From assembly GCA_963677595.1 (NCBI GenBank), contig OY782041.1, forward strand, positions 576,001 to 640,000: a DNA stretch of 64,000 nucleotides, in the 5' to 3' direction. Source of the stretch: Spirochaetia bacterium. Its GTDB lineage: Bacteria > Spirochaetota > Spirochaetia > CAKZLE01. A program made the position numbers and the translations under genes. The notes under the pieces are model-generated. The model had not been told where the DNA came from. It did no database searches and saw only the letters and a list, made by a program, of their open reading frames with translations. This document shows, piece after piece, positions 39,397-63,381 of this stretch; position 1 is the stretch's first letter; the number at the start of each line of letters is the position of its first letter.

Positions 39397-40278
39397 ATGG
39401 CTTTATCATTCACGTATGAGGGAAGGACCGTCTACCCGCCCACCAATGACGTCGTCTTCAAGGCGATCTTCGCTAAAGAAGACAACAAGGACCTGCTCTG
39501 TTCCCTGCTCAACAGTTTTCTCGATCTCCAGACCGAGGGCCCGGAAGATATCGAGATCGTGGCTCCTGAAGTCAACCGGAAGTATTATGATGACAAACTC
39601 ATACAGCTTGACCTGAAAGTGAAGACAGCTAAAGGTGAGCATATTAACGTGGAGATCCAGGTCCGGGATGAACATAACATGGAACAAAGAAGTATGTACT
39701 ATGTCTCTACCCTGTTTACCGACCAACTGACTGATGGAATGGATTATTCTGAGCTCCAACGTGCTGTAGGACTGAACCTTCTGTGCTATAATACGAAGGG
39801 GAACACGAGGTTCATCAGACGATGGACCATGCATGACAGGGAGACCCAAGAGGAGGTCTCCGACAAAATCGAACTGGTATTCGTTGAGCTGCTGAATACT
39901 GAGTATGCAGACTTGAAAGGCCTGCGGGGGCAGTGGACGACTTTCTTGACTGCAGATACTGAAGAGCCGCTCAAAGAACTCTGTACGGCGAATGCCATGT
40001 TTCGGAAGGCGGTGGATACCTTGGTATATGTCAGTGAAGAAGAGGAAGTTCGCTACTACATGAATATGAAGAAGAAAGCTCGCCTGGATGCTGCAGCCCG
40101 AGAGACACGAGCGAAGAGAAAGGGTATAGCCATAGGGGAAACTTCGACAATACGAAGAACTATCATCAGGGCATTCCAACTTGGTTACGATCCTGCTGCC
40201 ATAGCTGACCTTACCGGTGCGTCTCTCGAGGAGATCGAGAGCATCAGGATAGAATTGGGAAAAGAATCTGAACAGTGA
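39397..40278 (+). CDS. Rpn-family PD-(D/E)XK nuclease (putative transposase family)
   Basis: NDVVFKAIF, LDL...NVEIQ and RSMYY motifs; C-terminal HTH-like tail; GGAGG RBS. Confidence 0.9.
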   Translation: MALSFTYEGRTVYPPTNDVVFKAIFAKEDNKDLLCSLLNSFLDLQTEGPEDIEIVAPEVNRKYYDDKLIQLDLKVKTAKGEHINVEIQVRDEHNMEQRSMYYVSTLFTDQLTDGMDYSELQRAVGLNLLCYNTKGNTRFIRRWTMHDRETQEEVSDKIELVFVELLNTEYADLKGLRGQWTTFLTADTEEPLKELCTANAMFRKAVDTLVYVSEEEEVRYYMNMKKKARLDAAARETRAKRKGIAIGETSTIRRTIIRAFQLGYDPAAIADLTGASLEEIESIRIELGKESEQ

Positions 40279-40378
40279 TCCTTCTGCATCACGAAGCTCT
40301 GCGATGCAGTCAACCTGTTCGGGGAAGGCGGTGGATACCTTGGTATATGTCAGTGAAGAAGAGGAAGTTCGCTACTAC

Positions 40379-40606
40379 ATGGATATGAAGAAGAAAGCTC
40401 GCCTGGATGCTGCAGCCCGGGAGACACGAGCGGAGAGAAGGGGTGAAGCCCGAGGTGAAGCTCGAGGTATAACCAAAGGGGAAACCTCGACAATACGAAG
40501 GACTATCATCAGGGCATTCCAACTTGGGTGGGACCCTGCTGTCATCGCAGATATCACCGGTGCATCTCTCGAGGAGATCGAACGCATCAGGAAGGAGTTA
40601 GCGTAG
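40379..40606 (+). CDS. Stand-alone variant copy of the Rpn C-terminal domain (RpnS-like, 75 aa) or gene remnant
   Basis: Near-identical DNA to 40004 onward begins at 40323; open frame from an ATG after GAAGAGGAAG. Confidence 0.6.
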   Translation: MDMKKKARLDAAARETRAERRGEARGEARGITKGETSTIRRTIIRAFQLGWDPAVIADITGASLEEIERIRKELA

Positions 40607-47716: not shown

Positions 47717-48964
47717 ATGACAGGAAAAGAGCGGGTATTGGATGCGATCAACCATAAGTCCGGAAAAGTGCCGGTCGATTTCGGATCCAATGCGGTAACC
47801 GGGATGCATGTATCCATCGTTCAGGCCCTGCGGGACCATTATGGGTTAGAAGAACGTCCAGTTAAAGTGATAGAGCCCTATCAGATGCTCGGTGAAATCG
47901 ATGACGAGCTCAAACAGCAGATCGGGATCGATGTAGAAGGACTTTTCTCCCCCCTATCGAACTGGGGGTTTCCCCTCACAGACTGGAAGGAGTGGACCAC
48001 TCCCTGGGGACAGGAAGTCCTGGTACCGGGGAAGTTCTCAGTCTCGACTGAAGGCGGAGCCACATTCATATATCCTCAGGGTGACCGGGACTCAGCCCCC
48101 TCCGGACATATGCCGGAAGGCGGGTATTTCTTCGATACCATCATCAGGCAGAACCATTTCGATGAGAACACTATCAGGGTCGAGGATAATCTCGAGGAAT
48201 TCACGCTTTTCAATAATCAGGATCTGCAGTTCTACCGGGACCATAAGCAGTGGGCAGCCAATTCTGATCGGGCTGTACTTGGAAGCTTCCCTGGAGCCGG
48301 TCTTGGTGATATAGCCCTCGTACCCGGCCCCGGCCTGAAGGACCCAAGGGGGATCCGAGACGTGACCGAATGGTATATGTCCATGGCCCTGCGGCAGGAC
48401 CTCCTCCATGAGATCTTCGCTTCTCAGACAGATATAGCCCTGCAGAACCTGCAGACCTACAAAGATATTCTCGGGGACTCCATACAGATCGTGTTCACCT
48501 GCGGGACCGATTTCGGCACCCAGAATTCCCAGTTCTGCTCGACTGTCGCATTTGATGAGCTCTACCTTCCCTACTACCGAAAAGTGAACGACTGGATCCA
48601 CAGCAATACGAACTGGAAGGTCTTCAAGCACAGTTGCGGGGCAGTAGAGGGATTCCTGAGCCATTTCATCGAAGCCGGGTTCGACATCATCAATCCAGTC
48701 CAGTGTTCCGCTGCAGGGATGGACCCAATGACTCTCAAAGAACGTTATGGTAAGGATATCACCTTCTGGGGCGGAGGGGTGAACACACAGCACACGCTCC
48801 CCTTCGGAACACCGGAGGATGTTCGGAAAGAAGTCCTTGAGCGGCTAGAGATCTTCTCCCGTGATGGGGGCTACGTCTTTGATGCCATTCATAATGTCCA
48901 AGCCCAGACACCTATTGCCAATGTGGTTGCCATGCTCGAGGCTGTGCAGGAGTTCAATGCCTGA
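47717..48964 (+). CDS. UroD/MtaA-CmuA family protein (methyltransferase-like)
   Basis: DFGTQ, HSCG, FWGGGV.TQ and HN motifs. Confidence 0.85.
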   Translation: MTGKERVLDAINHKSGKVPVDFGSNAVTGMHVSIVQALRDHYGLEERPVKVIEPYQMLGEIDDELKQQIGIDVEGLFSPLSNWGFPLTDWKEWTTPWGQEVLVPGKFSVSTEGGATFIYPQGDRDSAPSGHMPEGGYFFDTIIRQNHFDENTIRVEDNLEEFTLFNNQDLQFYRDHKQWAANSDRAVLGSFPGAGLGDIALVPGPGLKDPRGIRDVTEWYMSMALRQDLLHEIFASQTDIALQNLQTYKDILGDSIQIVFTCGTDFGTQNSQFCSTVAFDELYLPYYRKVNDWIHSNTNWKVFKHSCGAVEGFLSHFIEAGFDIINPVQCSAAGMDPMTLKERYGKDITFWGGGVNTQHTLPFGTPEDVRKEVLERLEIFSRDGGYVFDAIHNVQAQTPIANVVAMLEAVQEFNA

Positions 48965-49043
48965 GGAGAGAGACTGGTCGGAGAAAAGGGAGGGCACCAT
49001 GATCTGCCATGATGCCCTTCCTACAGCCGGATCTCTCTTACTA

Positions 49044-50282
49044 TCAGTAGCGAATCGAGTTCACTACCTCATACATCGCTACGATATTCTCCGGGGGGAT
49101 CCCCGGGAGCATGTTATGGATCGGGGTGAACACGAAACCACCGTCCTTCATGAAGATCTCACAATTCCTCTTCACCGCATCCCTGACCGACTGCTCATCC
49201 CCGAAGGCCAGCAGGTTCTGGGTATCAACTCCACCACCCCAGAACACCAGGTCTTTCCCGAACTCGTTCTTCAGTTCCTGGGGATCCATGTTAGTACATT
49301 GGGTCTGTACCGGGTTGAGGATATCAAGGCCCGCCTCGATGAGGGAGGGAATGAGGTCCTTGATCGCACCGCAGCTGTGGATGAACGTCTTGAGGCTGGA
49401 ATGCTCATGGACGAAATCGAAGACCGCTTTATGGTACGGGAAGATCAGTTCTTTGTATAAAGCCGGGGAAATCAGCGGGGCAGACTGCATCCCGAGGTCA
49501 TCCGAGAATATGATGACATCAGCATAGCCGTCTACGGCCTTGAGGTATTTCTCGAGATTGACGAAGTGCCTCTCCAGCATCGTATCAAAGAGCATCCTCA
49601 CCTCGTCAGGCTCTACCAGCATCTTCATGAAGAACTCATCATTCCTGTAGAGCCACTGGCCGGGCTCGAACACGATGTTGCTGTAATTGGCCGTGATGCA
49701 GTAGTCGGTCTCATCATACAGCTTCTTGGCAGCCCTGTTGATATTCTCATAGAAGTCCGGTTCACTGTCATGGAGGAACATCGGGTCCTTGATCGTCAGC
49801 CAGCTCACCTTCTTCATGGCTTGCTCCAGATCATCGAAGTTCTCGTTCGTCTTGCCGTAATATGGATAGATCTGCTGGTCAAAATAGAACGCACCCTCAA
49901 CCATGGAGGTGAGCACATCCCCGTCATCATCAACGACGACCCATTCAGATCCTCTCTTCTCCAGCTTAGCCCAGCCGGGGAACTTCGCCTTCGATCCATC
50001 GGGGAGTGTCCAATCCTTCCACTCAGAGTCGTTGAAACTGTAGACTCTGGCAAGGTCTACTACATCGATCTGGAACTTATCAAGGTACCATTGCTCAGGG
50101 AGCGCAAGCTGCTGGTTGACATCATAGATCCGGGTCGTACTGCCAGACACCCCGAGATACTCCTTCACATCGTTATACAGCATAGCGCTGATACCTGAGG
50201 AGTGCATACCGCCGCAATCAAGGGCTATCTTATCCGCTTCCTTGTGATTCAGGACAGCCCGTACTCGCTCTCTTCTTGTCAT
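49044..50282 (-). CDS. UroD/MtaA-CmuA family protein (second paralogue)
   Basis: DDLGMQ, HSCG, FWGGGVDTQ and HN motifs. Confidence 0.85.
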   Translation of the reverse strand: MTRRERVRAVLNHKEADKIALDCGGMHSSGISAMLYNDVKEYLGVSGSTTRIYDVNQQLALPEQWYLDKFQIDVVDLARVYSFNDSEWKDWTLPDGSKAKFPGWAKLEKRGSEWVVVDDDGDVLTSMVEGAFYFDQQIYPYYGKTNENFDDLEQAMKKVSWLTIKDPMFLHDSEPDFYENINRAAKKLYDETDYCITANYSNIVFEPGQWLYRNDEFFMKMLVEPDEVRMLFDTMLERHFVNLEKYLKAVDGYADVIIFSDDLGMQSAPLISPALYKELIFPYHKAVFDFVHEHSSLKTFIHSCGAIKDLIPSLIEAGLDILNPVQTQCTNMDPQELKNEFGKDLVFWGGGVDTQNLLAFGDEQSVRDAVKRNCEIFMKDGGFVFTPIHNMLPGIPPENIVAMYEVVNSIRY

Positions 50283-50456
50283 GTTATCCTCCTCCTTTTC
50301 TTGAAAACCATCCAGAACAACTGCTGCGCGCTCACTGCAGGAACGCTTTATTCCTCAGAACCCCTGAGATGATGACAAGCTGTGGTGTATGGTAATGAAT
50401 CAGGGCGATCCTGAAAGCTCTTCTGCTCACAGGAAAGCCCTTATAAATCGTAGTAT

Positions 50457-51239
50457 CTAGAAGATACCCATGATCGCCTTGACGGCGGTCGCAGTATCTT
50501 TCTCCGGGAACAGTTCGGACCCGACGATCCCCTCGTACCCCAGCTTCTTGAGGTGCTTCATCACATTGGGGTAGTTGATCTCACCAGTCCCCGGCTCATG
50601 CCTGCCCGGGGCGTCTGCGATATGTATATGACCGATCGTATCCACGAACTCGGAGAGGGTATCACAGATTTTCCCTTCGTTGAGCTGCATGTGGTACACG
50701 TCATAGAGGATCTTCACCCTCGGTGACCCGATAAGCCGTATCATCTCTGCTGCCATCCTGGTGTTCTCCAGGAAATTCCCCACATGGTCTGTCGTGATGT
50801 TCAGCCCTTCCAGGTTACAGTTGATCCCAAACTCCTCAGCCATGACAGAGACATCCTTGAGCATATCATACATCGAACAGAGCTTGACCGTATGTGAGAG
50901 CTCGGTGTAGTGGTTCACCACCACTCCCCCGTCGCCCAAAGCATTGGAGTGGATCGTCACGCTCAATGATCCTAGTCGCTTGGCTACCTCCAGGGACTGC
51001 CGGAGAAAATCCAGATATTTCTCCTTATGGGTCGGGTCTACCAATGAATAGTCAGCATCACCATTATACCCGCAGATGCCAATCCCTGCCTCATCGGCGA
51101 GGCGTCTCACCTCGTCGATATCCTTATCTCTCCAATCCCAGAATTCCACAAAGTCGAACCCATCCTGCTTTGCTGCAGCGAAGCGTTCTTCCCATGGCAG
51201 TTCTGTATATAATGTCTCTATACAGGCTGCAGTCTTCAT
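50457..51239 (-). CDS. Hydroxypyruvate-isomerase-like TIM barrel sugar isomerase/epimerase
   Basis: YDVYHMQ and HIADAPGRHEPGTGEINY motifs. Confidence 0.88.
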   Translation of the reverse strand: MKTAACIETLYTELPWEERFAAAKQDGFDFVEFWDWRDKDIDEVRRLADEAGIGICGYNGDADYSLVDPTHKEKYLDFLRQSLEVAKRLGSLSVTIHSNALGDGGVVVNHYTELSHTVKLCSMYDMLKDVSVMAEEFGINCNLEGLNITTDHVGNFLENTRMAAEMIRLIGSPRVKILYDVYHMQLNEGKICDTLSEFVDTIGHIHIADAPGRHEPGTGEINYPNVMKHLKKLGYEGIVGSELFPEKDTATAVKAIMGIF

Positions 51240-52255
51240 CCGTCGATCTCCGATAACTTGACTGGTCGATTCTCTTCAAGCGACTTCAGTGCGGCAAGAG
51301 CGATCACTACCGGCATCCTTCCATCATTACCTGTTACAGGTACCGGGGTATCCTCAGCGACTGCGGTAACGAATGCCTTGAACTCATTGACATATGCTGC
51401 CGTATATCGCTCAACGAAGAACAGCGGATGAAGGTCTTTCTGGATGGCTTTCCCACCGCTGAGTACAACGGTATTCGTATCCATGTTCTTTGCCTCGAGC
51501 ATACCTTCAGACCCGAACGCCTCGATCCTCTGGTCATATCCATAGACAGCCTTTCTGCTGTTGTCAATGATCCCGAGTGCCCCGTTCGCGAACTTCAGGT
51601 TGATCACACAGGTGTCGATATCACCAGCCTTCCCGATCTCGGGGTCAACCAGGACAGCGCCTGCAGCATACACCTCTTCGACTTCACAGCCGGCGATGAA
51701 CCTTACCATATCGAAGTCATGGATGGTCATATCCCTGAACAGGCCGCCTGACCGGCCGATGTACTCGATCGGTGGTGGTCCCGGATCCCGGCTTGCTATC
51801 CTGAGGAAATGCAGCTCGCCGATCTCGCCCCGGTCGATCCCGTCCCGCACTCGTGCGAAGTTCGGGTCGAATCGCCTGTTGAATCCTACCTGCAGCTTGA
51901 CACCGCACTCTTTTACCACAGCAAGGGTCTTGTCGATCTTCGCAAGATCCAGGTCTATCGGCTTCTCACAGAAGATATGCTTCCCGGCCTGCGCAGCAGC
52001 CTGGATATAGTCAGCATGGGTATCGGTACTCGAACAAATGACGACAGCATCAATCTCTGAATCTTCCAGGATATCCTCTATCCGTGATGTAGCCAGGGGA
52101 ACATCGAACTTCTTCGCTACTTCCTCAGCGACTGGAAGATATGCATCGCAGACAGCCTTCACACTCACACCATCGATTCTCTTGGTGAGTGTCTCAACAT
52201 GAAACGAACCAATCCGACCGGTTCCGATTACACCTATATTCAACGTTTGCGGCAT
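51236..52255 (-). CDS. iolG: Inositol 2-dehydrogenase
   Basis: GTGRIG, CEKP, GFNRRFD, SRDP, DMTIHDFD and YGYDQR motifs. Confidence 0.88.
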   Translation of the reverse strand: MPQTLNIGVIGTGRIGSFHVETLTKRIDGVSVKAVCDAYLPVAEEVAKKFDVPLATSRIEDILEDSEIDAVVICSSTDTHADYIQAAAQAGKHIFCEKPIDLDLAKIDKTLAVVKECGVKLQVGFNRRFDPNFARVRDGIDRGEIGELHFLRIASRDPGPPPIEYIGRSGGLFRDMTIHDFDMVRFIAGCEVEEVYAAGAVLVDPEIGKAGDIDTCVINLKFANGALGIIDNSRKAVYGYDQRIEAFGSEGMLEAKNMDTNTVVLSGGKAIQKDLHPLFFVERYTAAYVNEFKAFVTAVAEDTPVPVTGNDGRMPVVIALAALKSLEENRPVKLSEIDG

Positions 52256-52437: not shown

Positions 52438-53403
52438 ATGGGAAAGCAGAGATTACGGATGAAAGACCTGGTAACGGAGGTGTTTCTCTATCTGTCAAAG
52501 AAGTTCGACCAGAGCAGCCTCGATTCGATCAACCAGCTGGTCGTCCCGATCGAGGAGATCCGCTCCTATCTCAATGAGAAGTACGCCATCTCCTACACGA
52601 GCAACCAGCATATACTCAATCAGTTGAAGAGTTATCAGGAGGAACTCGGGGAACCGCTCTTCAAGAAGATAAAACCGAAGAGAGACTCCGACGACCTCGC
52701 CATCACCCTTGAGAGCCAGCTGAAGAGCTACAAGCAGAAACAGCTGCTCTATATCACGCAGAAACTCAAGATCGCGAATGCTGTCTATGACAAGATCCTT
52801 CACGAGACGGAATTTCAGCCGGTTCGGCCATTGAATATCTTATTGGGAGCCGGTTCCGAGACGTTCTATGTCGCAAAGACCCTGGTTTCGGGGATCAAGG
52901 AACAGGGGATGCAGTTTCGGGTCTACACCCATAACCTGGGAGTCATCAACTACCTCATGGAGGAGCTTCCCCATCTGGGGGGACTGGAACTCTATACCCG
53001 AAATGAATGGATCGACCCGGTCAACAATCTCCTCATAGCTACTGGGGAGGATCATTACCTTACGGTGAAATACGACTACATCATACAGGCCGCGACCTTC
53101 ATCGCCGATAAGAAGCTCTATGTGGAATCCCCGAAGGAGAATATCCAGAAAGGCGATATCCTCAACCACGCACATGGGCAGAAGATCCTCATCCTCACGA
53201 AGCATGAGTTCATCTCCACCCATATCAACAGTATGGAATCGTATGGGACACTGGATCTCTATGATTATGTCATCATCCCGTATTCCAGGGAGACACAGAA
53301 CAGACAGAAGGAGTATTCAGAAATATTGAAAAAATACGTGGGCAGCGTCATCGAACCTGATATCACCCACTACAATTACATGGTGTACAAGATACTGAAA
53401 TAA
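52438..53403 (+). CDS. Divergent DeoR-like regulator (tentative)
   Basis: K..IA, LLGAGS, YTHN and KILI pattern resembles the DeoR sensor domain; divergent from iolG. Confidence 0.55.
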   Translation: MGKQRLRMKDLVTEVFLYLSKKFDQSSLDSINQLVVPIEEIRSYLNEKYAISYTSNQHILNQLKSYQEELGEPLFKKIKPKRDSDDLAITLESQLKSYKQKQLLYITQKLKIANAVYDKILHETEFQPVRPLNILLGAGSETFYVAKTLVSGIKEQGMQFRVYTHNLGVINYLMEELPHLGGLELYTRNEWIDPVNNLLIATGEDHYLTVKYDYIIQAATFIADKKLYVESPKENIQKGDILNHAHGQKILILTKHEFISTHINSMESYGTLDLYDYVIIPYSRETQNRQKEYSEILKKYVGSVIEPDITHYNYMVYKILK

Positions 53404-53471: not shown

Positions 53472-54416
53472 CTATTTTTTCAGTGACTTCGCAGCTTCTA
53501 CGATCTTGGCTGCAGTAAGGCCGAATCGATCCTGCAGGTATCCCTGCTTGCCGACTTCACCGAACTCATCGTTCACTGCTACCCTTCTCATGAGGGTCGG
53601 CAGGTTCTCTGAGAGGTACTCACTTACCGCCCCGCCGAGTCCTCCGATCTTCTGGCCGTTCTCGCAGGTCACGATCGCACCAGTCTTCTTCGCATACTCT
53701 GCCACAAGGGCTTCGTCAAGCGGCTTGACCGTATGCATGTCGATGACAGCAGCACTGATTCCCTCTTCTGCGAGGATCTCCCGTGCCTTGAGGGCTTCGC
53801 TCACCATCACCAGACCTGTGGCGATGAGGGTCACGTCAGTCCCGTCCTCGATGACGATGCCCTTGCCCAGCTCGAAGTTCTGGTCCTCTTTGTAGATGGT
53901 CATGGCGCCTTTCCGGTGCAGCCTCATGTAGACTGGTCCCTGGTGCTCATAGACCTTCTTGGTAAGCTTGTACAGTGACACGGTATCGCAGGGCTCGACG
54001 ACCACCAGTCCGGGGATCACCCGAGTCAGGGTGATATCGCAGAACGGCATGTGGGTCCCACCGTTGAACTGGGCGGTCACTCCCGGGTCAGACCCGACGA
54101 GCTTCACATTCTGCTTCGCATAGTTCACGGATAGGAAGAACTGGTCGAACGCCCGTCGTGTGGCAAAACACCCGAAGGTAGAGGCGAAGGGGATGAACCC
54201 CTGGGAAGCGAGACCGGCAGCGACACCGACCATGTTCGCCTCAGCGACACCGGCATTGATCATCCTCTCAGGGAATTCGGTCTTGAACGCCTTGGTCCCG
54301 TTCGCTGACATCAGGTCAGCATCCATGACGACTACTTTATCATCTTCCTTTGCCAGGTCGATGAGCGTATCGGTATATACCGCTCTCATATCTGCATAGG
54401 TATCTAACTTCTTCAT
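53472..54416 (-). CDS. Transketolase C-terminal subunit (pair B)
   Basis: DADL, GVAEANMVG, NGGTH and DMHTVKPLD motifs. Confidence 0.93.
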   Translation of the reverse strand: MKKLDTYADMRAVYTDTLIDLAKEDDKVVVMDADLMSANGTKAFKTEFPERMINAGVAEANMVGVAAGLASQGFIPFASTFGCFATRRAFDQFFLSVNYAKQNVKLVGSDPGVTAQFNGGTHMPFCDITLTRVIPGLVVVEPCDTVSLYKLTKKVYEHQGPVYMRLHRKGAMTIYKEDQNFELGKGIVIEDGTDVTLIATGLVMVSEALKAREILAEEGISAAVIDMHTVKPLDEALVAEYAKKTGAIVTCENGQKIGGLGGAVSEYLSENLPTLMRRVAVNDEFGEVGKQGYLQDRFGLTAAKIVEAAKSLKK

Positions 54417-54417
54417 C

Positions 54418-55245
54418 TTACTTCTCCCCCTGCAGCACTGCGATAGCTTCTTTTGCTGTCTCATAGGTGAATGCCATGCTGTGTGAGCTAACCAACCCTT
54501 CAGCAGGTGCGAACCCCTTTGCCTTGATCGTATCGCAGACGATCATGGAAGGCCGGTCCGTGACCTTCTGGGCATTGTCGATCGCTTTCGCGATGGCTGC
54601 CACGTTATGGCCGTCGATCCTCTGGACATGCCAGCCGAACCCGTTCCACTTGGTGGTAATATCATCGATGCCCATGACATCGGCGGTCTCCCCGTCGATC
54701 TGCATCTTGTTGTAGTCGGTGAAGGCGATCATGTTCCCGAGCTTGTAGTGAGCACCGAACATGGCAGCTTCCCAAACCTGGCCTTCCTGGCTCTCACCGT
54801 CACCGATGATCAGGTAGGTATGTGCGTCGATGCCCTTCATCTTATCTGCAAGCGCGATACCCATCGCAGCTGAGGTTCCCTGTCCAAGAGACCCGGTGGT
54901 GAAATCGATCCCCGGGGTCTGGTTCATATCACAGTGGCTGGGAAGTCTGGTCCCGCCCTGGTTCAGGGTATGCAGCCATTCTTTCGGGAAGAATCCCTTG
55001 TCTGCCAGTACTGCGTAGAGAGCTGGTCCGGAGTGGCCCTTCGAGACGACCAGCTTGTCCCTGGTCTCCATCCTCGGGTTTGCAGGATCCACATTCATCT
55101 TGTCATAATAGAGCACTGTCAGGATGTCGACCACTGACATGGCTCCCCCGATGTGACCGACTCCGAGGTACCCAACCTCATCGATCGTGAGCACACGAAT
55201 ATCCTTCGCTTTCTGCTCTAGGAAGGTCCTTTGTTCTGCTTCCAT
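54418..55245 (-). CDS. Transketolase N-terminal subunit (pair B)
   Basis: GHIGG, SKGH, GSLGQG and GDGE..EG..N TPP motif. Confidence 0.93.
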   Translation of the reverse strand: MEAEQRTFLEQKAKDIRVLTIDEVGYLGVGHIGGAMSVVDILTVLYYDKMNVDPANPRMETRDKLVVSKGHSGPALYAVLADKGFFPKEWLHTLNQGGTRLPSHCDMNQTPGIDFTTGSLGQGTSAAMGIALADKMKGIDAHTYLIIGDGESQEGQVWEAAMFGAHYKLGNMIAFTDYNKMQIDGETADVMGIDDITTKWNGFGWHVQRIDGHNVAAIAKAIDNAQKVTDRPSMIVCDTIKAKGFAPAEGLVSSHSMAFTYETAKEAIAVLQGEK

Positions 55246-55561: not shown

Positions 55562-56509
55562 CTATTGCTTCAGTGACTTTACCGTCTCTACGATATCTTC
55601 AGCCATCAGCTTGTATCGCTTCTGCAGGTAGGCAAGGTCCCCGACCTCGCCGAACTCATCATCGATCCCCATCCGTCTCACCAGTGTGGGGTGGACTTCA
55701 GAAAGATAATCAGCCACAGAAGAGCCCAGGCCGTTGTATCGCTGGGCATTCTCGATCGTGACGACCTTCCCGGTCTTCTTCGCATACTCAAGCACCAACG
55801 CTTCATCCAGAGGCTTTATGGTGTGCATATCGATGACTGCGGCACTGATTCCTTCAGCCTCCAGCAGTTCTGCCGCCTTCACGGCAGCATCCACCATGAC
55901 CAGACCGGTCGCGATCAGGGTCACGTCGGTCCCGTCGGATAACACGATCCCCTTGCCAAGCTCGATCGGTGTCTCATCGGTATACCTGACGGTCGTCCCC
56001 TTCCGCTGGAGCCTCATGTAGGTGGATCCCACGTGGGCTGCTGACTGCTGCGTCAGCTTGTAGCAGGAGACAGAATCAGACGGCTCGAAGACCACGAGAC
56101 CCGGGACCATCTTCATCAGCCCGAAATCCTCGAACGGCATGTGCGTCCCCCCGTTCATCTGGGAGGTGATCCCCGGGTCAGTTCCTACCAGCTTCACGTT
56201 CTGCTTCGCATAGTTCGCCGAGAGGAAGAACTGGTCGAATGCCCTTCTCGAGGCAAAACAGGCAAAGGTATGGGCGAATGGGATCAGCCCCGTGGATGAC
56301 AGCCCTGCGGCGATCCCTACCATATCTGCCTCAGAGATCCCGACGTTGAAGAACCGGTCAGGATACGTCTTCTGGAACCCGCCGGAGTTCACGCAGCCTG
56401 ACAGGTCAGCATCCAGCATCACGATCCGTTCATCATCTGCTGCAAGGTCAGCCACAGCTGCTACGAACGCATCCCTCATATGATCGAATGTGGTAAAATC
56501 TTTTGCCAT
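55562..56509 (-). CDS. Transketolase C-terminal subunit (pair A)
   Basis: DADL, GISEADMVG, NGGTH and DMHTIKPLD motifs. Confidence 0.93.
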   Translation of the reverse strand: MAKDFTTFDHMRDAFVAAVADLAADDERIVMLDADLSGCVNSGGFQKTYPDRFFNVGISEADMVGIAAGLSSTGLIPFAHTFACFASRRAFDQFFLSANYAKQNVKLVGTDPGITSQMNGGTHMPFEDFGLMKMVPGLVVFEPSDSVSCYKLTQQSAAHVGSTYMRLQRKGTTVRYTDETPIELGKGIVLSDGTDVTLIATGLVMVDAAVKAAELLEAEGISAAVIDMHTIKPLDEALVLEYAKKTGKVVTIENAQRYNGLGSSVADYLSEVHPTLVRRMGIDDEFGEVGDLAYLQKRYKLMAEDIVETVKSLKQ

Positions 56510-56513
56510 ATCC

Positions 56514-57344
56514 CTACACCTCACTCTCTAGTTTCTCGATGGCTGCAGCTGCCTGCTCCGCACTGATTCCCATACTGTGGTTGGCCTGGATGCCTTCACC
56601 GAAGCAGTAGCCCTTACTCTTGATCGTGTCAAGCACGATCATCGAAGGCTTGTCAGTCACCTGCTGAGCCGCCTCGATCGCGGCATCAAGCGCCTGGAAA
56701 TCATGTCCGTCGATCTTCTGCACATGCCAGCCGAAGCTCTTCCATTTATCATCAAGCGGGTCCATCCCGATGATGTTGTCGCAGTAGTCGTCAAGCTGCT
56801 GCTTGTTGTAGTCGGTGAAGGCGATCAGTTTCCCCAGCTTGAACTGCGCTGCAGTCATCGCGGCTTCCCAGACCTGCCCCTCCTGGCTCTCACCGTCGCC
56901 GAGGACAAGGTAGGTGAACCGGTCTATCTTCTGGTATCGGTTCCCCATTGCGATACCCACTGCCGCAGATGAACCCTGCCCAAGGGAACCGGTAGTGAAG
57001 TCCACTCCCGGGGTCTTGTTCATATCACAGTGGCTCGGCAGGTTCGTCCCGCCCCTGTTCAGCGTATCGAGCCATTCTACGGGAAAGAATCCCTTGTCTG
57101 CCAGGGTCGCATAGACAGCAGGCCCGGAATGGCCCTTGGAGACGACGAGCTTGTCCCGATCCCGCATCTTCGGGTCCTTCGGGTCGACCTTCATCCATTT
57201 GTGGTAGAGGATCGTCAACAGTTCAACTATCGACATCGCTCCCCCGATATGGCCTGCACCAAGATTCGCGATCTCATCTATCGTCAGCTTCCTGATATCC
57301 TTCGCTTTCTTCTTCAAAGCCGTCACTTCAGCTTCATTCAGCAT
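56514..57344 (-). CDS. Transketolase N-terminal subunit (pair A)
   Basis: GHIGG, SKGH, GSLGQG and GDGESQEG motifs. Confidence 0.93.
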   Translation of the reverse strand: MLNEAEVTALKKKAKDIRKLTIDEIANLGAGHIGGAMSIVELLTILYHKWMKVDPKDPKMRDRDKLVVSKGHSGPAVYATLADKGFFPVEWLDTLNRGGTNLPSHCDMNKTPGVDFTTGSLGQGSSAAVGIAMGNRYQKIDRFTYLVLGDGESQEGQVWEAAMTAAQFKLGKLIAFTDYNKQQLDDYCDNIIGMDPLDDKWKSFGWHVQKIDGHDFQALDAAIEAAQQVTDKPSMIVLDTIKSKGYCFGEGIQANHSMGISAEQAAAAIEKLESEV

Positions 57345-57442
57345 CTATTCTCTCCTTACAACTTGTTCATTCTCTTCTGGTCTATTGAAAGAACAGGCTG
57401 CCCCCCGACGTATCAGGAGACAGCCCGTAGGCGGTTATGGTG

Positions 57443-58699
57443 TTATTTCAAACCTGCTGCTTTCTCCATCGCTGAGATAAGCGGCAGCTTCTTCCCTGAT
57501 ACATACCGGACCATGGCACCTCCTGCGGTGCAGACATAGCTCATCTTCTGTATATCCGTGAATCTGGCAGCAGCGTTCACGCTGTCCCCTCCACCGACCA
57601 CGGTAAATCCTGGGGCATCAGCGATTGCTTTCCAGATCTCTCTCGTCCCCACCTCGAAGGTGGGGTCCTCGAACACGCCCGCAGGCCCGTTCACGAAGAC
57701 TGTTCCGGCTCCATTGATGCTCTCCCGGTAGGAGGCGATCGTCTTCTCGCCGACATCGAGGTACATCAGTTCGGCAGGCATATCTGCTACTGCGATCTCT
57801 TTTCGTTCCCCGTCAGCTTCATAGGCCAGGTCTTCAGGCATCCTGATCTTCCCCGGAAATTTCTCCAGGTACTCCCGTGCAGGTGCTATGAATGTATCCA
57901 GGCCCTTCTTCGCCAGGAACTCATCGACCTTGCTGCCAAGGGACTGTCCCGAGGCGATGAGGAACACTTCCCCCGTCACCCCGCAGGTCAGGATCTCATC
58001 TGCTGTCCCGTTTGATAACACCTGCTCCATCATACCGAACGCATCCGAGATCTTCGCACCTCCAAGCACGAACACCGACGGGTGGGAAGGGGCAGTCATC
58101 ACCTGGTTCAGGGCCGATACCTCGTTAAAGAACAGCGGTCCCGCAGCACTCGGCAGCAGCTCCTGGAAGGCCACCATGCTCGGGCAGTTCCGGTGCGCAG
58201 CCGCGAACGCGTCATTGACGTAGAGGTCGAACAGCGGGGCCAATGATCTCACCAGCCAGGTGTCGAGCATCTCTTCCGGTTTCAGCTTCACCGCATCCTC
58301 GAAGGTCGAGATCTCCTCGCACAGATACCGCAGGTTCCCCAGCAGTACCGCTTCACCCTCATCGAGTGCCTCTACCGCGCTCTGCGCCATCGGCCCGCAT
58401 ACATCGTCGATGTACCTGACCTTCCGGCCGAGTTTCTGACTCAGCTTCTGCGCATGCTCTCTCAACGGGATCAGGTTCTGGTAATCGAGCGTATCCCCCT
58501 GGTGCGCGATCAACGCAAGCTTCGCCCCGTTATCGAGCAGCCACTTCACCGTCGGCACGCTCTTCTCCAGCCGGTTCTCGTTGACTATTGCCTTCGTCTT
58601 CGGGTCCACCGGGGAGTTGATGTCCACCCGCAGCAATACCCGCTTACCCGAGACATCAAATTCCTCCATCGGCTTGAACCCTAACGTATGCTCTTTCAT
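57443..58699 (-). CDS. Phosphoglycerate kinase family protein, archaeal-like, variant substrate site
   Basis: RVDINSP, NDAFAAAHR, GGAK, NGPAGVFE and GGGDS motifs; HQGD replaces HxGR. Confidence 0.9.
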   Translation of the reverse strand: MKEHTLGFKPMEEFDVSGKRVLLRVDINSPVDPKTKAIVNENRLEKSVPTVKWLLDNGAKLALIAHQGDTLDYQNLIPLREHAQKLSQKLGRKVRYIDDVCGPMAQSAVEALDEGEAVLLGNLRYLCEEISTFEDAVKLKPEEMLDTWLVRSLAPLFDLYVNDAFAAAHRNCPSMVAFQELLPSAAGPLFFNEVSALNQVMTAPSHPSVFVLGGAKISDAFGMMEQVLSNGTADEILTCGVTGEVFLIASGQSLGSKVDEFLAKKGLDTFIAPAREYLEKFPGKIRMPEDLAYEADGERKEIAVADMPAELMYLDVGEKTIASYRESINGAGTVFVNGPAGVFEDPTFEVGTREIWKAIADAPGFTVVGGGDSVNAAARFTDIQKMSYVCTAGGAMVRYVSGKKLPLISAMEKAAGLK

Positions 58700-58709
58700 C
58701 GGTGCTCTC

Positions 58710-59726
58710 TTACTTCATGCCCAGGTACTGGTTCGTTGCTGCCGTCCCCTCTTCCCTGGTCGCCTGCATCCCCATCGCGGCCCTGATCCCGTCTATGTTC
58801 TCCGGGATGACCACGGACTCCTGCGGGATGTTGATCGCGAACATGATGTCATCCCCTGACTTCACGATCGACTCTTCCCACAGCCCGATCTCATACATGT
58901 CACCTCGTGCATTCCCGATATCGCGTGCCCAGCGGAACATCGATGCGTTCCCTAAGAACCCGTCTGCCAGCTTCACCGGCATGATCCGCGGATGGTTGGA
59001 TGCCATCTCCCACAGGTCCTCTTTCGAGATGCCCTTCTTCGGTGTTGCCGTCACCGTGATGATATGCCCGTGGGTCACCGGTGTGTGCACCAGGATACCC
59101 GTACACGGGATATGGGGCATGATCGTCATCAGGTCGAGTGCCTGGTGGCTCGGTGCCTTCTCCACCTGCAGGGCATTGGTCAGCCCTCTATGGTAGTCAC
59201 CCGGGTCTGCCACCCTACGGATGATCGTGATCGCTACTTTCTCGAGTCCGACACTACGGTCGAGCATGTCCACCGCACGGATGAGCCCGGTGGTGTTGCA
59301 GCTCGTGAGCTTCAGGTAGTCTGCACCGATGCCCTGCTCGTAGTTCGCATAGCCGTGGAAGAAGACGTCTGCGATATCATTCTTCTCGCCGCCCTGGAAC
59401 ACGGCCTTGGTGCCATGCTTCACATACAGCTCCTTGTTCCGTGCGCCGATGCCGCCAGGTGAGCTGTCGAGCATGATGTCGCACTCCTGCACGAGTTCCT
59501 CGAAACTCCCTGATACCGGGATCCCGGCATCTTCTAAAGAGGTGTTCTTCGGGTCCACGTTGAACATCTTATACGGCATGCCCCGGTATTTCAGTGCCCG
59601 CACCGAGATCGTCGGGGCTATGTCGGCAACACCTACGAGCTCCATGTCTCCCTGGGCCGCAACTCCGTCTGCCAGTCGCTGCCCGATCACGCCGTATCCT
59701 GCTACTCCTACTTTGATCTTGCTCAT
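58710..59726 (-). CDS. Class II (archaeal-type) glyceraldehyde-3-phosphate dehydrogenase
   Basis: GYGVIGQR.AD, FQGGEK, SCNTTG, RR.ADP and PENID.IRA motifs. Confidence 0.92.
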   Translation of the reverse strand: MSKIKVGVAGYGVIGQRLADGVAAQGDMELVGVADIAPTISVRALKYRGMPYKMFNVDPKNTSLEDAGIPVSGSFEELVQECDIMLDSSPGGIGARNKELYVKHGTKAVFQGGEKNDIADVFFHGYANYEQGIGADYLKLTSCNTTGLIRAVDMLDRSVGLEKVAITIIRRVADPGDYHRGLTNALQVEKAPSHQALDLMTIMPHIPCTGILVHTPVTHGHIITVTATPKKGISKEDLWEMASNHPRIMPVKLADGFLGNASMFRWARDIGNARGDMYEIGLWEESIVKSGDDIMFAINIPQESVVIPENIDGIRAAMGMQATREEGTAATNQYLGMK

Positions 59727-60087
59727 CCGCTCTCCCTCCATATACTATGATTCCGTTATTGGTTACCTCATAAAAGCAATCATTTCACTCGTTGTATTCA
59801 GTATGGGGACTATGGGTACACCCAAATGGTTGGTCACATCAGACCATTTCAGAAGTGACCTTCTTCATAATCTCTGCATACTGTACTAACATCAGACATT
59901 CTGACTATATCATAAAATGACGAAAAGTCAATGAAGAATTTTCATTCAATCTAAACTCTGCTCCAATCCACATTATGAGTATTTCAACACCTTGCTAATA
60001 AAGAGTCTGAATCAAATCTCTATTGCAATGGTGCTAGTATCATCATATAATCTGAAGATACAGTTACACTTTGAGGAGTGAAAAAAA

Positions 60088-62222: not shown

Positions 62223-63065
62223 CTATTTCTGTCCTTCAAGTACCTCATCAAGAGGGGCATCCGGCCAGATGGCAGCCTTAGGATCCATGACCCAGGCATG
62301 TTCATTGCGGAAATTCCGTGAATCAGGTCCGAATTTATCAGCAGGCAGGTGGGGAATGATCCAGATATAGTACATCGCATACCCAGGTGCTGCGCATTGG
62401 GAATGGGTGACCCCTGGCGGGATCGCATAGGTATCCCCATTCTTCACTTTGTATACGTCATCTTCAAGCTCGGCATGTCCCCAACCCTGTTCCGGGAAGA
62501 ACCGGTAGTGGTAGATCTCTCTCTGAGGATGGTCATGGGGCGGATAGCTGGACCACTTCCCCGGGAAATTTATGACCTCCCCAAGCACGAATGCTGAATC
62601 TTCCGCAGTTGCCGCATCGAAGAAAGTACGCACCAGCCGGGTACTCGTATCCTGCAGGGTCCCCTCCCCGAACCGGTCAGCACGGTACTGCCCTGGTTCC
62701 CAGAGACGCGGGTGAAACTGTTTCTCATTCACCACAGCGGTGACTGCCAGTTCGGAACGGTCGGAAAGTCCTTTCAGCTCCACTCGGGTACCAGCCGGGA
62801 CATGGAGCACTACAGGATCATCTTCCAGGACATTCACCCTTCCAGCTTCTATGGAAACCGGTCCGTCCTCCCCTGCCCAGCCCATCTGGATCGTCCCAGA
62901 CATGAGCAGGAACGCACGTTCCGTTCCCTCTTCATTCAGATAGGACTCTCCCTCACTCAGGACCAGTATCCCGAAATCTGTCATCCAATCAGCATATTCG
63001 CCGGTCATCTTCGTCACCGGTGTATACCCGGGTCCGAACTGTTTCTTCTCATTCCGTATGATCAT
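62223..63065 (-). CDS. iolB: IolB/KduI-family (5-deoxy-glucuronate isomerase-like) cupin
   Basis: WSSYPPHDH and EIYHY motifs; inositol gene context. Confidence 0.8.
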   Translation of the reverse strand: MIIRNEKKQFGPGYTPVTKMTGEYADWMTDFGILVLSEGESYLNEEGTERAFLLMSGTIQMGWAGEDGPVSIEAGRVNVLEDDPVVLHVPAGTRVELKGLSDRSELAVTAVVNEKQFHPRLWEPGQYRADRFGEGTLQDTSTRLVRTFFDAATAEDSAFVLGEVINFPGKWSSYPPHDHPQREIYHYRFFPEQGWGHAELEDDVYKVKNGDTYAIPPGVTHSQCAAPGYAMYYIWIIPHLPADKFGPDSRNFRNEHAWVMDPKAAIWPDAPLDEVLEGQK

Positions 63066-63381
63066 GAACCATCCTCCCTGCATTCTCTCATCTGTATAGC
63101 TGGTTGTGGAATACCACATGTATAAGACCAACCATGTTTTGTGTTATCATCCTATTGTCATACAATACAAACAGTATAGAGGCTGTCTGTCCTCTTGTCA
63201 AACAGGAAGATGCACGAATTCATACTTTTTATAAGAAAGCCCGAATCTCTCTTTCTCAGGGAGCAAAGGGACACAGAAAGAGAAAATCTGCTGATATCAT
63301 AAGAAATTGGTTGACTTCTTGTAATCATATTGTATGATAATCATACGTATTAAAATAAAAATACGAAAAGCGAGGATAGCT

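Follow-up and report, generated by a model that had tools for sequence, protein, structure and literature searches.

We analysed a 64,000-nucleotide stretch of DNA from a Spirochaetia bacterium (the window; contig OY782041.1, positions 576,001 to 640,000), in which a gene for a class II (archaeal-type) glyceraldehyde-3-phosphate dehydrogenase (GAPDH)-like protein is followed by a gene for an archaeal-type phosphoglycerate kinase (PGK)-like protein. Our results suggested that this pair, called the cassette below, is probably a non-glycolytic GAPDH/PGK, which oxidises D-malic semialdehyde to D-malate with formation of NADH and ATP. Within this scheme we infer the transketolase step, the substrate, the NAD preference, the direction and the ATP yield. 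The elements of the pair are as follows.

58710..59726, minus strand: class II (archaeal-type) GAPDH-like dehydrogenase, 338 aa in the database gene call
57443..58699, minus strand: archaeal-type PGK-like kinase, 418 aa
58493..58504, minus strand: HQGD codons (residues 66-69), first part of a conserved HQGDTLDYQNL loop
58283..58330, minus strand: segment specific to the clade, R124-L139 (RYLxEEISTFExxVKL), following the second Arg that binds phosphate; model confidence is low here

The initial annotation, made from the letters alone, had described a class II GAPDH and an archaeal-like PGK 10 nt apart, and profile scores and structure matches agreed with it. The dehydrogenase scored 297.9 bits with TIGR01546 (cut-off 232.9) and 389.4 bits with NF003251 (cut-off 185), and carried the catalytic SCNTT motif, which placed it in the class II sequence family; its best matches in the Protein Data Bank (PDB) were solely archaeal (2czc, 1cf2, 1b7g and 2yyy). 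Its open reading frame (ORF) spans 58710-59741 on the minus strand (343 aa), the start proposed at ATG 59726 is that of the 338-aa gene call, and the gap to the downstream pgk is 10 nt (58700-58709). The archaeal class II phosphorylating enzymes (P. horikoshii 2czc, M. fervidus 1cf2, 1b7g and 2yyy) share the SCNTT, IRR, GGEK and QES motifs with the bacterial clade but have PSHHG and VPTT(L/I)MH, whereas the clade is marked by D40 in the cofactor loop, PSHQA, HTPVTHGH and DPGDYHRG (343-aa ORF numbering). PSHHG stands in 2czc, 1cf2 and an archaeal control (L127), at the site where the clade has PSHQA. In an alignment of 60 rows, including this genome's copies, Asp40 was found in 59, H-Q in 59 and THGH in all 60; the clade thus lacks the archaeal His-His of PSHH, which we take to have an anion-binding role. 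From its place in the cofactor loop, Asp40 suggests a preference for NAD. A single-sequence structure prediction of this protein (pLDDT 36) was of no use.

The kinase belongs to the PGK fold family by its PF00162 score (361.7 bits), its fold and its intact ATP-side motifs, GGAK (K216), NGPAG, GGGD and TAGGA. These motifs had been read correctly at first, as had RVDINSP (24-30) and HQGD (66-69). Its best PDB match was archaeal (2cun, E 1.4e-83), with the best bacterial entry at 1.8e-59. In pig PGK, the available text of PMC7729029 gives Arg65, Arg122 and Arg170 as ligands of the 3-phosphate, His62 as contacting the bridging oxygen, and Asp23 and Asn25 the 2-oxygen. The window PGK retains D26, N28, R43, H66, R124, H169, R170, K216 and D219, and among the pocket sites the Arg65 equivalent alone is altered, to Asp69; of the three-Arg basic patch of 3-phosphoglycerate (3-PG) kinases it therefore keeps R124 and R170 and has Asp at the third position. 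The first reading of HQGD as an altered basic motif stood in part: the Asp change is real, but H-Q-G is the normal archaeal-type motif, so only Asp69 is special, and the Arg site is not strictly invariant, being Lys in the solved PGKs 2cun and 4dg5.

Asp69 was present in 121 of 121 aligned proteins (the query and its 120 best matches, 64-93% identical) and HQGDTLDYQN in 106 of them, with the DTLDYQNL loop and the EEISTFE segment after R124 fixed. A more distant set of 150 representatives at 50% clustering, of which the 123 with 340-480 aa were aligned, had Arg at this site in 104 and Asp in 6. In a tree of 109 PGKs, the HQGD, HQGS and HQGG proteins formed one clade (support 0.99) nested among archaeal-type PGKs. 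The P. horikoshii enzyme 2cun has the fold, the HQG motif, the ATP site and the 2-OH and acyl ligands in common with the window PGK; unlike it, the clade has Asp for the Arg65 equivalent (sister subclades have Ser or Gly there), together with the EEISTFE segment and a DTLDYQN loop that is new. The AlphaFold model has a PGK fold and matched 2cun (TM 0.83, E 1e-43). Judged by alignment and tree, the Asp69 PGKs are a distinct clade with an apparently remodelled and conserved pocket.

The genome (4.33 Mb in one contig, C1; 95.4% complete, 6.28% contaminated), whose nearest named homologs come from spirochaetes, holds five GAPDH-PGK pairs, one canonical and four with class II GAPDH and HQGD-PGK. 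A separate canonical locus, which the initial annotation had proposed looking for, lies at C1:3786538-3789842 with class I gap, pgk (HLGR), tpi and secG. Class I GAPDH scored over the cut-off in 51 of 59 cassette genomes. Unlike archaeal class II GAPDH, the bacterial clade is additional to class I GAPDH, and the pair is additional to canonical glycolysis. In the available text of Koendjbiharie et al. 2019 (PMC6543838), the class II GAPDH CDQ83_07070 of P. thermosuccinogenes showed no activity on glyceraldehyde 3-phosphate (G3P) with NAD or NADP in an arsenate assay, and two class I enzymes were active. A metagenome scan with the reverse cloning primer gave nine loci, of which five belong to this GAPDH family and a further one (L132) overlaps that same end of the gene. 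L128 was the only locus with both CDQ83_07070 primers as exact matches at the ends of one gene, the forward one right after the start codon; its GAPDH is 76% identical to that of the window and overlaps an HQGDTLDYQNL kinase gene (66% identical), in the order LacI-gapII-HQGD pgk-TKn-TKc-iolB-iolD-iolE-iolG. Because both primers match one L128 gene, the assayed enzyme very probably belongs to the window GAPDH family.

These results bear on the simplest alternative, that of an ordinary G3P/3-PG isoenzyme pair from archaea, co-expressed with sugar operons for transketolase triose-phosphate flux. The curated class II GAPDH cut-offs are passed, D26, N28, R43, H66, R124 and R170 are kept, and the Lys of 2cun and 4dg5 at the Arg site also speaks for it. 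The primer-matched member is without G3P activity, however, canonical enzymes are present, and the alternative leaves unexplained the malate racemase and malic enzyme neighbours and the exclusion of iolC described below. We consider it quite unlikely. The early claim that the pair is not glycolytic was supported by the canonical locus, the Asp clade and the published G3P negative.

The genes around the cassette point to its substrate. Within the window they are the following.

56514..57344, minus strand: split transketolase 1 (TK1), N-terminal (thiamine diphosphate) subunit
55562..56524, minus strand: TK1, C-terminal subunit, of a subfamily with DPG...NGGTHM where 6yak has THAG...GEDGASHQ
54418..55245, minus strand: split transketolase 2 (TK2), N-terminal subunit, 64% identical to TK1 N
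53472..54464, minus strand: TK2, C-terminal subunit, TK1 C subfamily, 60% identical to TK1 C
51236..52255, minus strand: inositol 2-dehydrogenase IolG (TIGR04380 465.6 bits, cut-off 355)
62223..63131, minus strand: IolB-like isomerase (KduI/IolB family), divergent (TIGR04378 85.8 bits, cut-off 205 not reached)

Both split-transketolase gene pairs lie downstream of pgk on the shared strand, and homologs of iolD and iolE lie 7-11 kb past the window end, so that the co-orientation in an iol-like region noted at the outset was confirmed. IolD scored 955 bits (cut-off 715) and IolE was assigned by homology to a scored protein; further Gfo/Idh dehydrogenases, TIM-barrel isomerases and an ABC transporter also lie past the end. 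The upper iol pathway (IolG, IolE, IolD, IolB) was counted as present, with the IolB-like protein under its cut-off.

At least 80 loci of the Genome Taxonomy Database (72 of the clade and 8 outgroups) were surveyed, with counts taken among the matches listed; many of the contigs are short, and one genome contributes two of the loci. The 72 clade loci had class II GAPDH in 65 and as one fusion, LarA-like genes in 45, split transketolase in 26-27, iolG in 22, malic enzyme in 20, iolB in 19, iolD in 18, iolE in 17, class III aminotransferase in 9, MttB methyltransferases in 6 and tartrate-dehydrogenase-like (TDH-like) genes in 5. Any malate-type gene (LarA-like, malic enzyme, or tartrate/D-malate dehydrogenase-like) was found in 51 of 72 clade loci versus none of 8 outgroup loci. 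Genes iolB/D/E occurred in 22 of 72, with split transketolase in 19 of those 22, and all nine loci with the aminotransferase had a malate gene. Among the LarA neighbours, 36 of 46 matched the malate racemase model NF052593 at E<=1e-140 and 45 of 46 had the G-x-H-K signature, described in the available text of PMC7583248 and PMC11770544. Their closest structure was Mar2 (6d6z), and the protein of locus L018 scored 579.9 (cut-off 500) with the H-K signature, as an NPN-dependent malate racemase would. The available part of the Desguin 2020 supplement lists PGK (3/18) and GAPDH (2/4) as neighbours of LarA groups and gives no pathway. In the relatives G001 and G004 the window-type copy lies inside an iolB-D-E-(G)-gapII-pgk-TK operon, and in G005 between malic enzyme/Ldh_2 and LarA.

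The 26 transketolase C subunits surveyed are all of a single subfamily, in which the His of THAG is replaced by Asp and EDGASHQ by NG[G/A]THM; the altered sites (the THAG His and the EDGASHQ region) presumably correspond to H461 and D469 of E. coli. H461 is among the transketolase sites mutated for better use of 5-keto-gluconate in the available text of PMC12016104.

Neither iolC (best 150 of 300 bits) nor iolA (best 261 of 448.5 bits) reached its cut-off in this genome; class II aldolases exist elsewhere in it. A genome-wide TIGR04382 test was preferred to the survey loci, because the zero counts of PfkB and aldolase in those loci are limited to clusters for which a protein of this genome was the seed. 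The 61 cassette genomes examined stand for 50 of the 72 loci and 11 further cases, with two duplicates. Of these genomes 37 had iolD, and only two of the 37 had iolC; in one of the two, G340, iolC lies beside iolD and the cassette in an aminotransferase operon. A draw of Spirochaetota had the cassette in 8 of 301 genomes, too few for a contingency test, so a draw of Clostridia was used (399 scored, 21 with iolD, 19 of them new to the analysis). Here iolC was found in none of the 5 genomes that carry the cassette and in 11 of the 14 that do not (Fisher p=0.005; related genomes are not independent); in one of the five the cassette is unlinked to iolD, and in one it is unplaceable. iolA was a poor discriminator (0 of 41 cassette genomes with iolD versus 4 of 14 without the cassette).

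From these contexts we propose the following scheme. IolG, IolE, IolD and IolB would convert myo-inositol to 2-deoxy-5-keto-D-gluconate (DKG), CH2OH-CO-CHOH-CHOH-CH2-COO-, which would have the fructose configuration acceptable to transketolase because, read stereochemically, DKG is 5-deoxy-D-fructuronate. The next step would bypass the kinase IolC and the aldolase IolJ: the split transketolase encoded beside the pair would transfer the C2 ketol unit of DKG to an aldose phosphate. The C4 aldehyde freed would be OHC-CH(OH)-CH2-COO- (D-malic semialdehyde, 3-hydroxy-4-oxobutanoate), its 2-OH in the D-glyceraldehyde configuration, and thus a look-alike of G3P with carboxymethyl replacing phosphoryloxymethyl. 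The GAPDH-like protein would catalyse its phosphorylating oxidation to a predicted malyl-1-phosphate with NADH, and the PGK-like protein would pass the phosphate to ADP, giving D-malate and ATP; in most hosts malate racemase and malic enzyme may then convert D-malate to pyruvate. In the PGK, the ligands of the 2-OH and the acyl group, the ATP site and two of three distal Arg are all retained, and loss of the third Arg would fit a shorter carboxylate tail. Loci with aminotransferase and MttB would reach the same semialdehyde from demethylated carnitine; carnitine-derived malic semialdehyde gives D-malate in the available text of PMC11353897, and transketolase cleaves 5-keto-gluconate to tartaric semialdehyde in that of PMC12016104 and PMC13527115. 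For the wider claim the balance tips only slightly in favour: a second, kinase-free myo-inositol fermentation in spirochaetes and in about one third of the Clostridia that degrade inositol (6 of the 20 iolD genomes drawn), with the first natural malyl-phosphate-forming dehydrogenase and D-malate kinase, and with the module also serving carnitine-type and sugar-acid pathways.

The initial annotation had proposed a C4, non-phosphorylated aldehyde released by the transketolases, which is the right class, and had named erythrose-4-phosphate, glyceraldehyde, glycolaldehyde and sulfolactaldehyde, which the neighbourhoods do not favour; these indicate a carboxylate-bearing C4 aldehyde (malic or tartaric semialdehyde). 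Oxidation of one of the four with ATP gain would fit the adjacent transketolases, neutral aldehydes would fit the Arg loss, and neighbours of copy 2 of the cassette (described below) weakly match L-sulfolactate dehydrogenase (261 of 500 bits) and sulfoquinovose isomerase (66 of 700 bits). Two distal Arg remain, however, which favours an anionic tail over neutral aldehydes; no sulfoglycolysis, erythronate or glycerate gene was among the recurring neighbour clusters (34 representatives scanned, singletons excluded), and dicarboxylate-handling genes dominate the neighbourhoods. Such a substrate is therefore very unlikely.

The four cassette copies of this genome all have HQGDTLDYQN. Their PGKs are 86-95% and their GAPDHs 96-98% identical, with synonymous differences (pS) of 0.15-0.35 and nonsynonymous ones (pN) of 0.005-0.09, indicating purifying selection. 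An assembly artefact as the source of the four copies was ruled out by their divergence and by two copies in a congener. In a read run (X1) that may be the source sample, depth was about 200-230 over the cassette versus 34-42 on the flanks. Copy 2 (C1:2.75 Mb) is preceded by LarA-like, TRAP transporter, Ldh_2, IolN-like, SDR, fucose-isomerase-like and HpcH genes and is followed by an Asp/Glu-racemase-family gene; the stretch covered in the congener G001 has the same arrangement. Copy 3 (C1:936400-939800) is chimeric: on the 5' side it is flanked by sequence 97% identical to the HpcH tail of copy 2, and on the 3' side by the truncated head of a window transketolase. Copies 3 and 4 have host-like GC (0.59), and each ends a low-GC (about 0.39-0.45) run of sugar genes. 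Copy 4 lies in a locus with PfkB, a class II aldolase and a lactonase.

The same chemistry could act mainly on another acid aldehyde: tartaric semialdehyde derived from a 5-ketohexonate, with tartrate as the product, or tartronate semialdehyde formed by HpcH or class II aldolases, with hydroxymalonate as the product. The genes before copy 2, with the IolN-like hydrolase at 153 of 245 bits, and the copy 4 locus fit such substrates; malate racemases also epimerise tartrate (available text of PMC11770544), TDH-like neighbours occur in 5 of 72 loci, and the published cleavage of 5-keto-gluconate by transketolase (available text of PMC12016104) fits tartaric semialdehyde. On the other side, the sugar contexts are dominated by iolD/E/B, the genes leading to the 2-deoxy compound (22 of 72 loci, versus two with IolN-like), malic enzyme is present in 20 loci, and the aminotransferase/MttB context yields malic, not tartaric, semialdehyde. 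The neighbours of copies 3 and 4 are weaker witnesses of function, because these copies look like intragenomic grafts onto low-GC islands. We regard a tartaric or tartronate substrate in place of malic semialdehyde as unlikely; if the enzymes are broad, these semialdehydes may be used alongside it.

Several points weigh against D-malic semialdehyde as the substrate or against the loss of glycolytic function. Copies 2 and 4 are compatible with tartaric or tartronate semialdehyde, and copies 3 and 4 adjoin a canonical transketolase, a class II aldolase or PfkB kinases. With R124 and R170 retained, the kinase could still bind a phosphate and may have some residual activity on 3-PG; yeast PGK with R65Q is reportedly active. 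One HQGD representative (P0270) fell outside the clade in the PGK tree. The structural model of the pocket, proposed at first, came from AlphaFold and has pLDDT <50 at 69-71 and 129-137, the key loops, and for this reason pocket geometry was not used as evidence. The IolB-like and TDH-like proteins are under curated cut-offs. No malate gene is present in the window operon; the LarA gene adjoins copy 2 (NF052593 404 bits, below 500), and malic enzyme is encoded elsewhere. larB, larC and larE were not found in this genome (95% complete, one contig), and the syntenic larBEC block of G001 had no tblastn match in it, whereas all three genomes of the same family and 24 of 40 genomes with the cassette have larE. 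Because these genes are missing, the LarA proteins of this genome may lack their cofactor, and D-malate may be excreted or otherwise handled in this strain. The published G3P negative came from crude extract, according to the available text, and L128 is linked to it by primers, not by a deposited sequence; no positive assay of any family member on any substrate was found in the literature searched.

Further observations were made on the cassette and its surroundings. Eight LarA N-domain matches occur in this genome without larB, larC or larE, and the congener region (L140, G001:C2:30000-47000) has larB-larE-larC. This genome also has eleven gene pairs for split transketolase-like N and C subunits, an unusually large set in which the active-site motifs vary. 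Copy 3 sits at the end of a low-GC island, and the cassette may be a recombination site for incoming sugar islands; at C1:942487-943770 and 950180-951463, two genes for 427-aa sugar-binding proteins with a shared N-terminus and host-like GC flank a low-GC block as a direct duplication. A Dehalococcoidales metagenome-assembled genome has a single 761-aa ORF joining class II GAPDH and the HQGD kinase (L044:8948-11233), which could be a real fusion or a lost stop codon. An Asp/Glu-racemase-family gene with one apparent catalytic Cys lies mostly directly after the kinase (L091:17230-17892; L019, L034, L058, L124) and is a candidate for handling the acid product. Two possible signals flank the pair.

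59904..59931, minus strand: promoter-like site (TTGACT-16-TATAGT with TG), lying some 180 nt before the GAPDH start, a consensus match only
57393..57428, minus strand: stable hairpin in the interval from pgk to the first transketolase gene (z -3.6; none of 200 shuffles was equally stable)

Seven promoter-like sites were found versus 4.4 expected in shuffles, and the terminator scan did not call the hairpin. Elsewhere in the window, two URO-D/MtaA-like genes and a hydroxypyruvate-isomerase-like TIM barrel lie beside iolG (47717-51239) and, as a guess, might serve O-methyl inositols. The gene at 52438-53403 (plus strand) had no Pfam or NCBIfam match and probably encodes a regulator; its Atlas look-alikes are DeoR-type sensor proteins, the closest cluster being mostly spirochaetal. 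At 39397-40606 a gene, which we take to be PD-(D/E)XK/Rpn-like, is followed by a partial duplicate of its 3' end.

Among known systems, the canonical myo-inositol pathway (IolG-E-D-B-C-J-A) shares IolG, IolE, IolD and an IolB-like protein with this locus but has IolC and IolA, for which none scored over the cut-off here; the split transketolase and the GAPDH/PGK pair stand instead. In the sulfoglycolytic transketolase pathway a split transketolase likewise strips C2 units from an anionic ketose and the aldehyde is oxidised with ATP gain, but the substrate is a sulfonate and the route CoA-acylating rather than through GAPDH/PGK. The inositol variant of D. welbionis, considered as prior art, was set aside as a different route, since in the available text of PMC13311982 it still runs via DKG-6-phosphate, and the tables there have one PGK and a class I GAPDH. 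The malic semialdehyde dehydrogenase of Acinetobacter carnitine degradation has the same proposed substrate and product, but is non-phosphorylating and yields no ATP (available text of PMC11353897). The route from 5-keto-gluconate to tartrate likewise relies on a transketolase to split an unphosphorylated 5-ketohexonate and release a C4 aldehyde-acid, but, as far as the available texts of PMC12016104 and PMC13527115 describe it, has a biosynthetic aim and uses engineered or promiscuous enzymes with a non-phosphorylating semialdehyde dehydrogenase. The engineered malate kinase pathway shares malate, malyl phosphate and malate semialdehyde, but acts reductively on the C4 carboxyl of L-malate with aspartokinase/Asd scaffolds, and here C1 of D-malate and PGK/GAPDH scaffolds would be involved; it was the sole malate kinase found in the literature searched, and in the available text its authors state that malate kinase-type activities are unreported in nature (PMC5481828). 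No account of this inositol/malate pathway was found in the literature searched, and closed journals and bioRxiv supplements could hold prior work. The folds are known, and the predicted reactions and pathway branch would be new.

If the proposed reactions are true, they would represent a new step of substrate-level phosphorylation and give anaerobes a second way to use inositol, a compound found in diets and soils. They would also give a reason why bacteria keep an archaeal-type GAPDH, which the single assaying paper describes, in its available text, as inactive and without functional evidence in bacteria (PMC6543838). Many annotations would then be corrected, given 3,524 GAPDH relatives at E<=1e-100, some of them outside the clade, and the family would provide natural malate kinase and semialdehyde dehydrogenase activities of the kind that engineers had to build.

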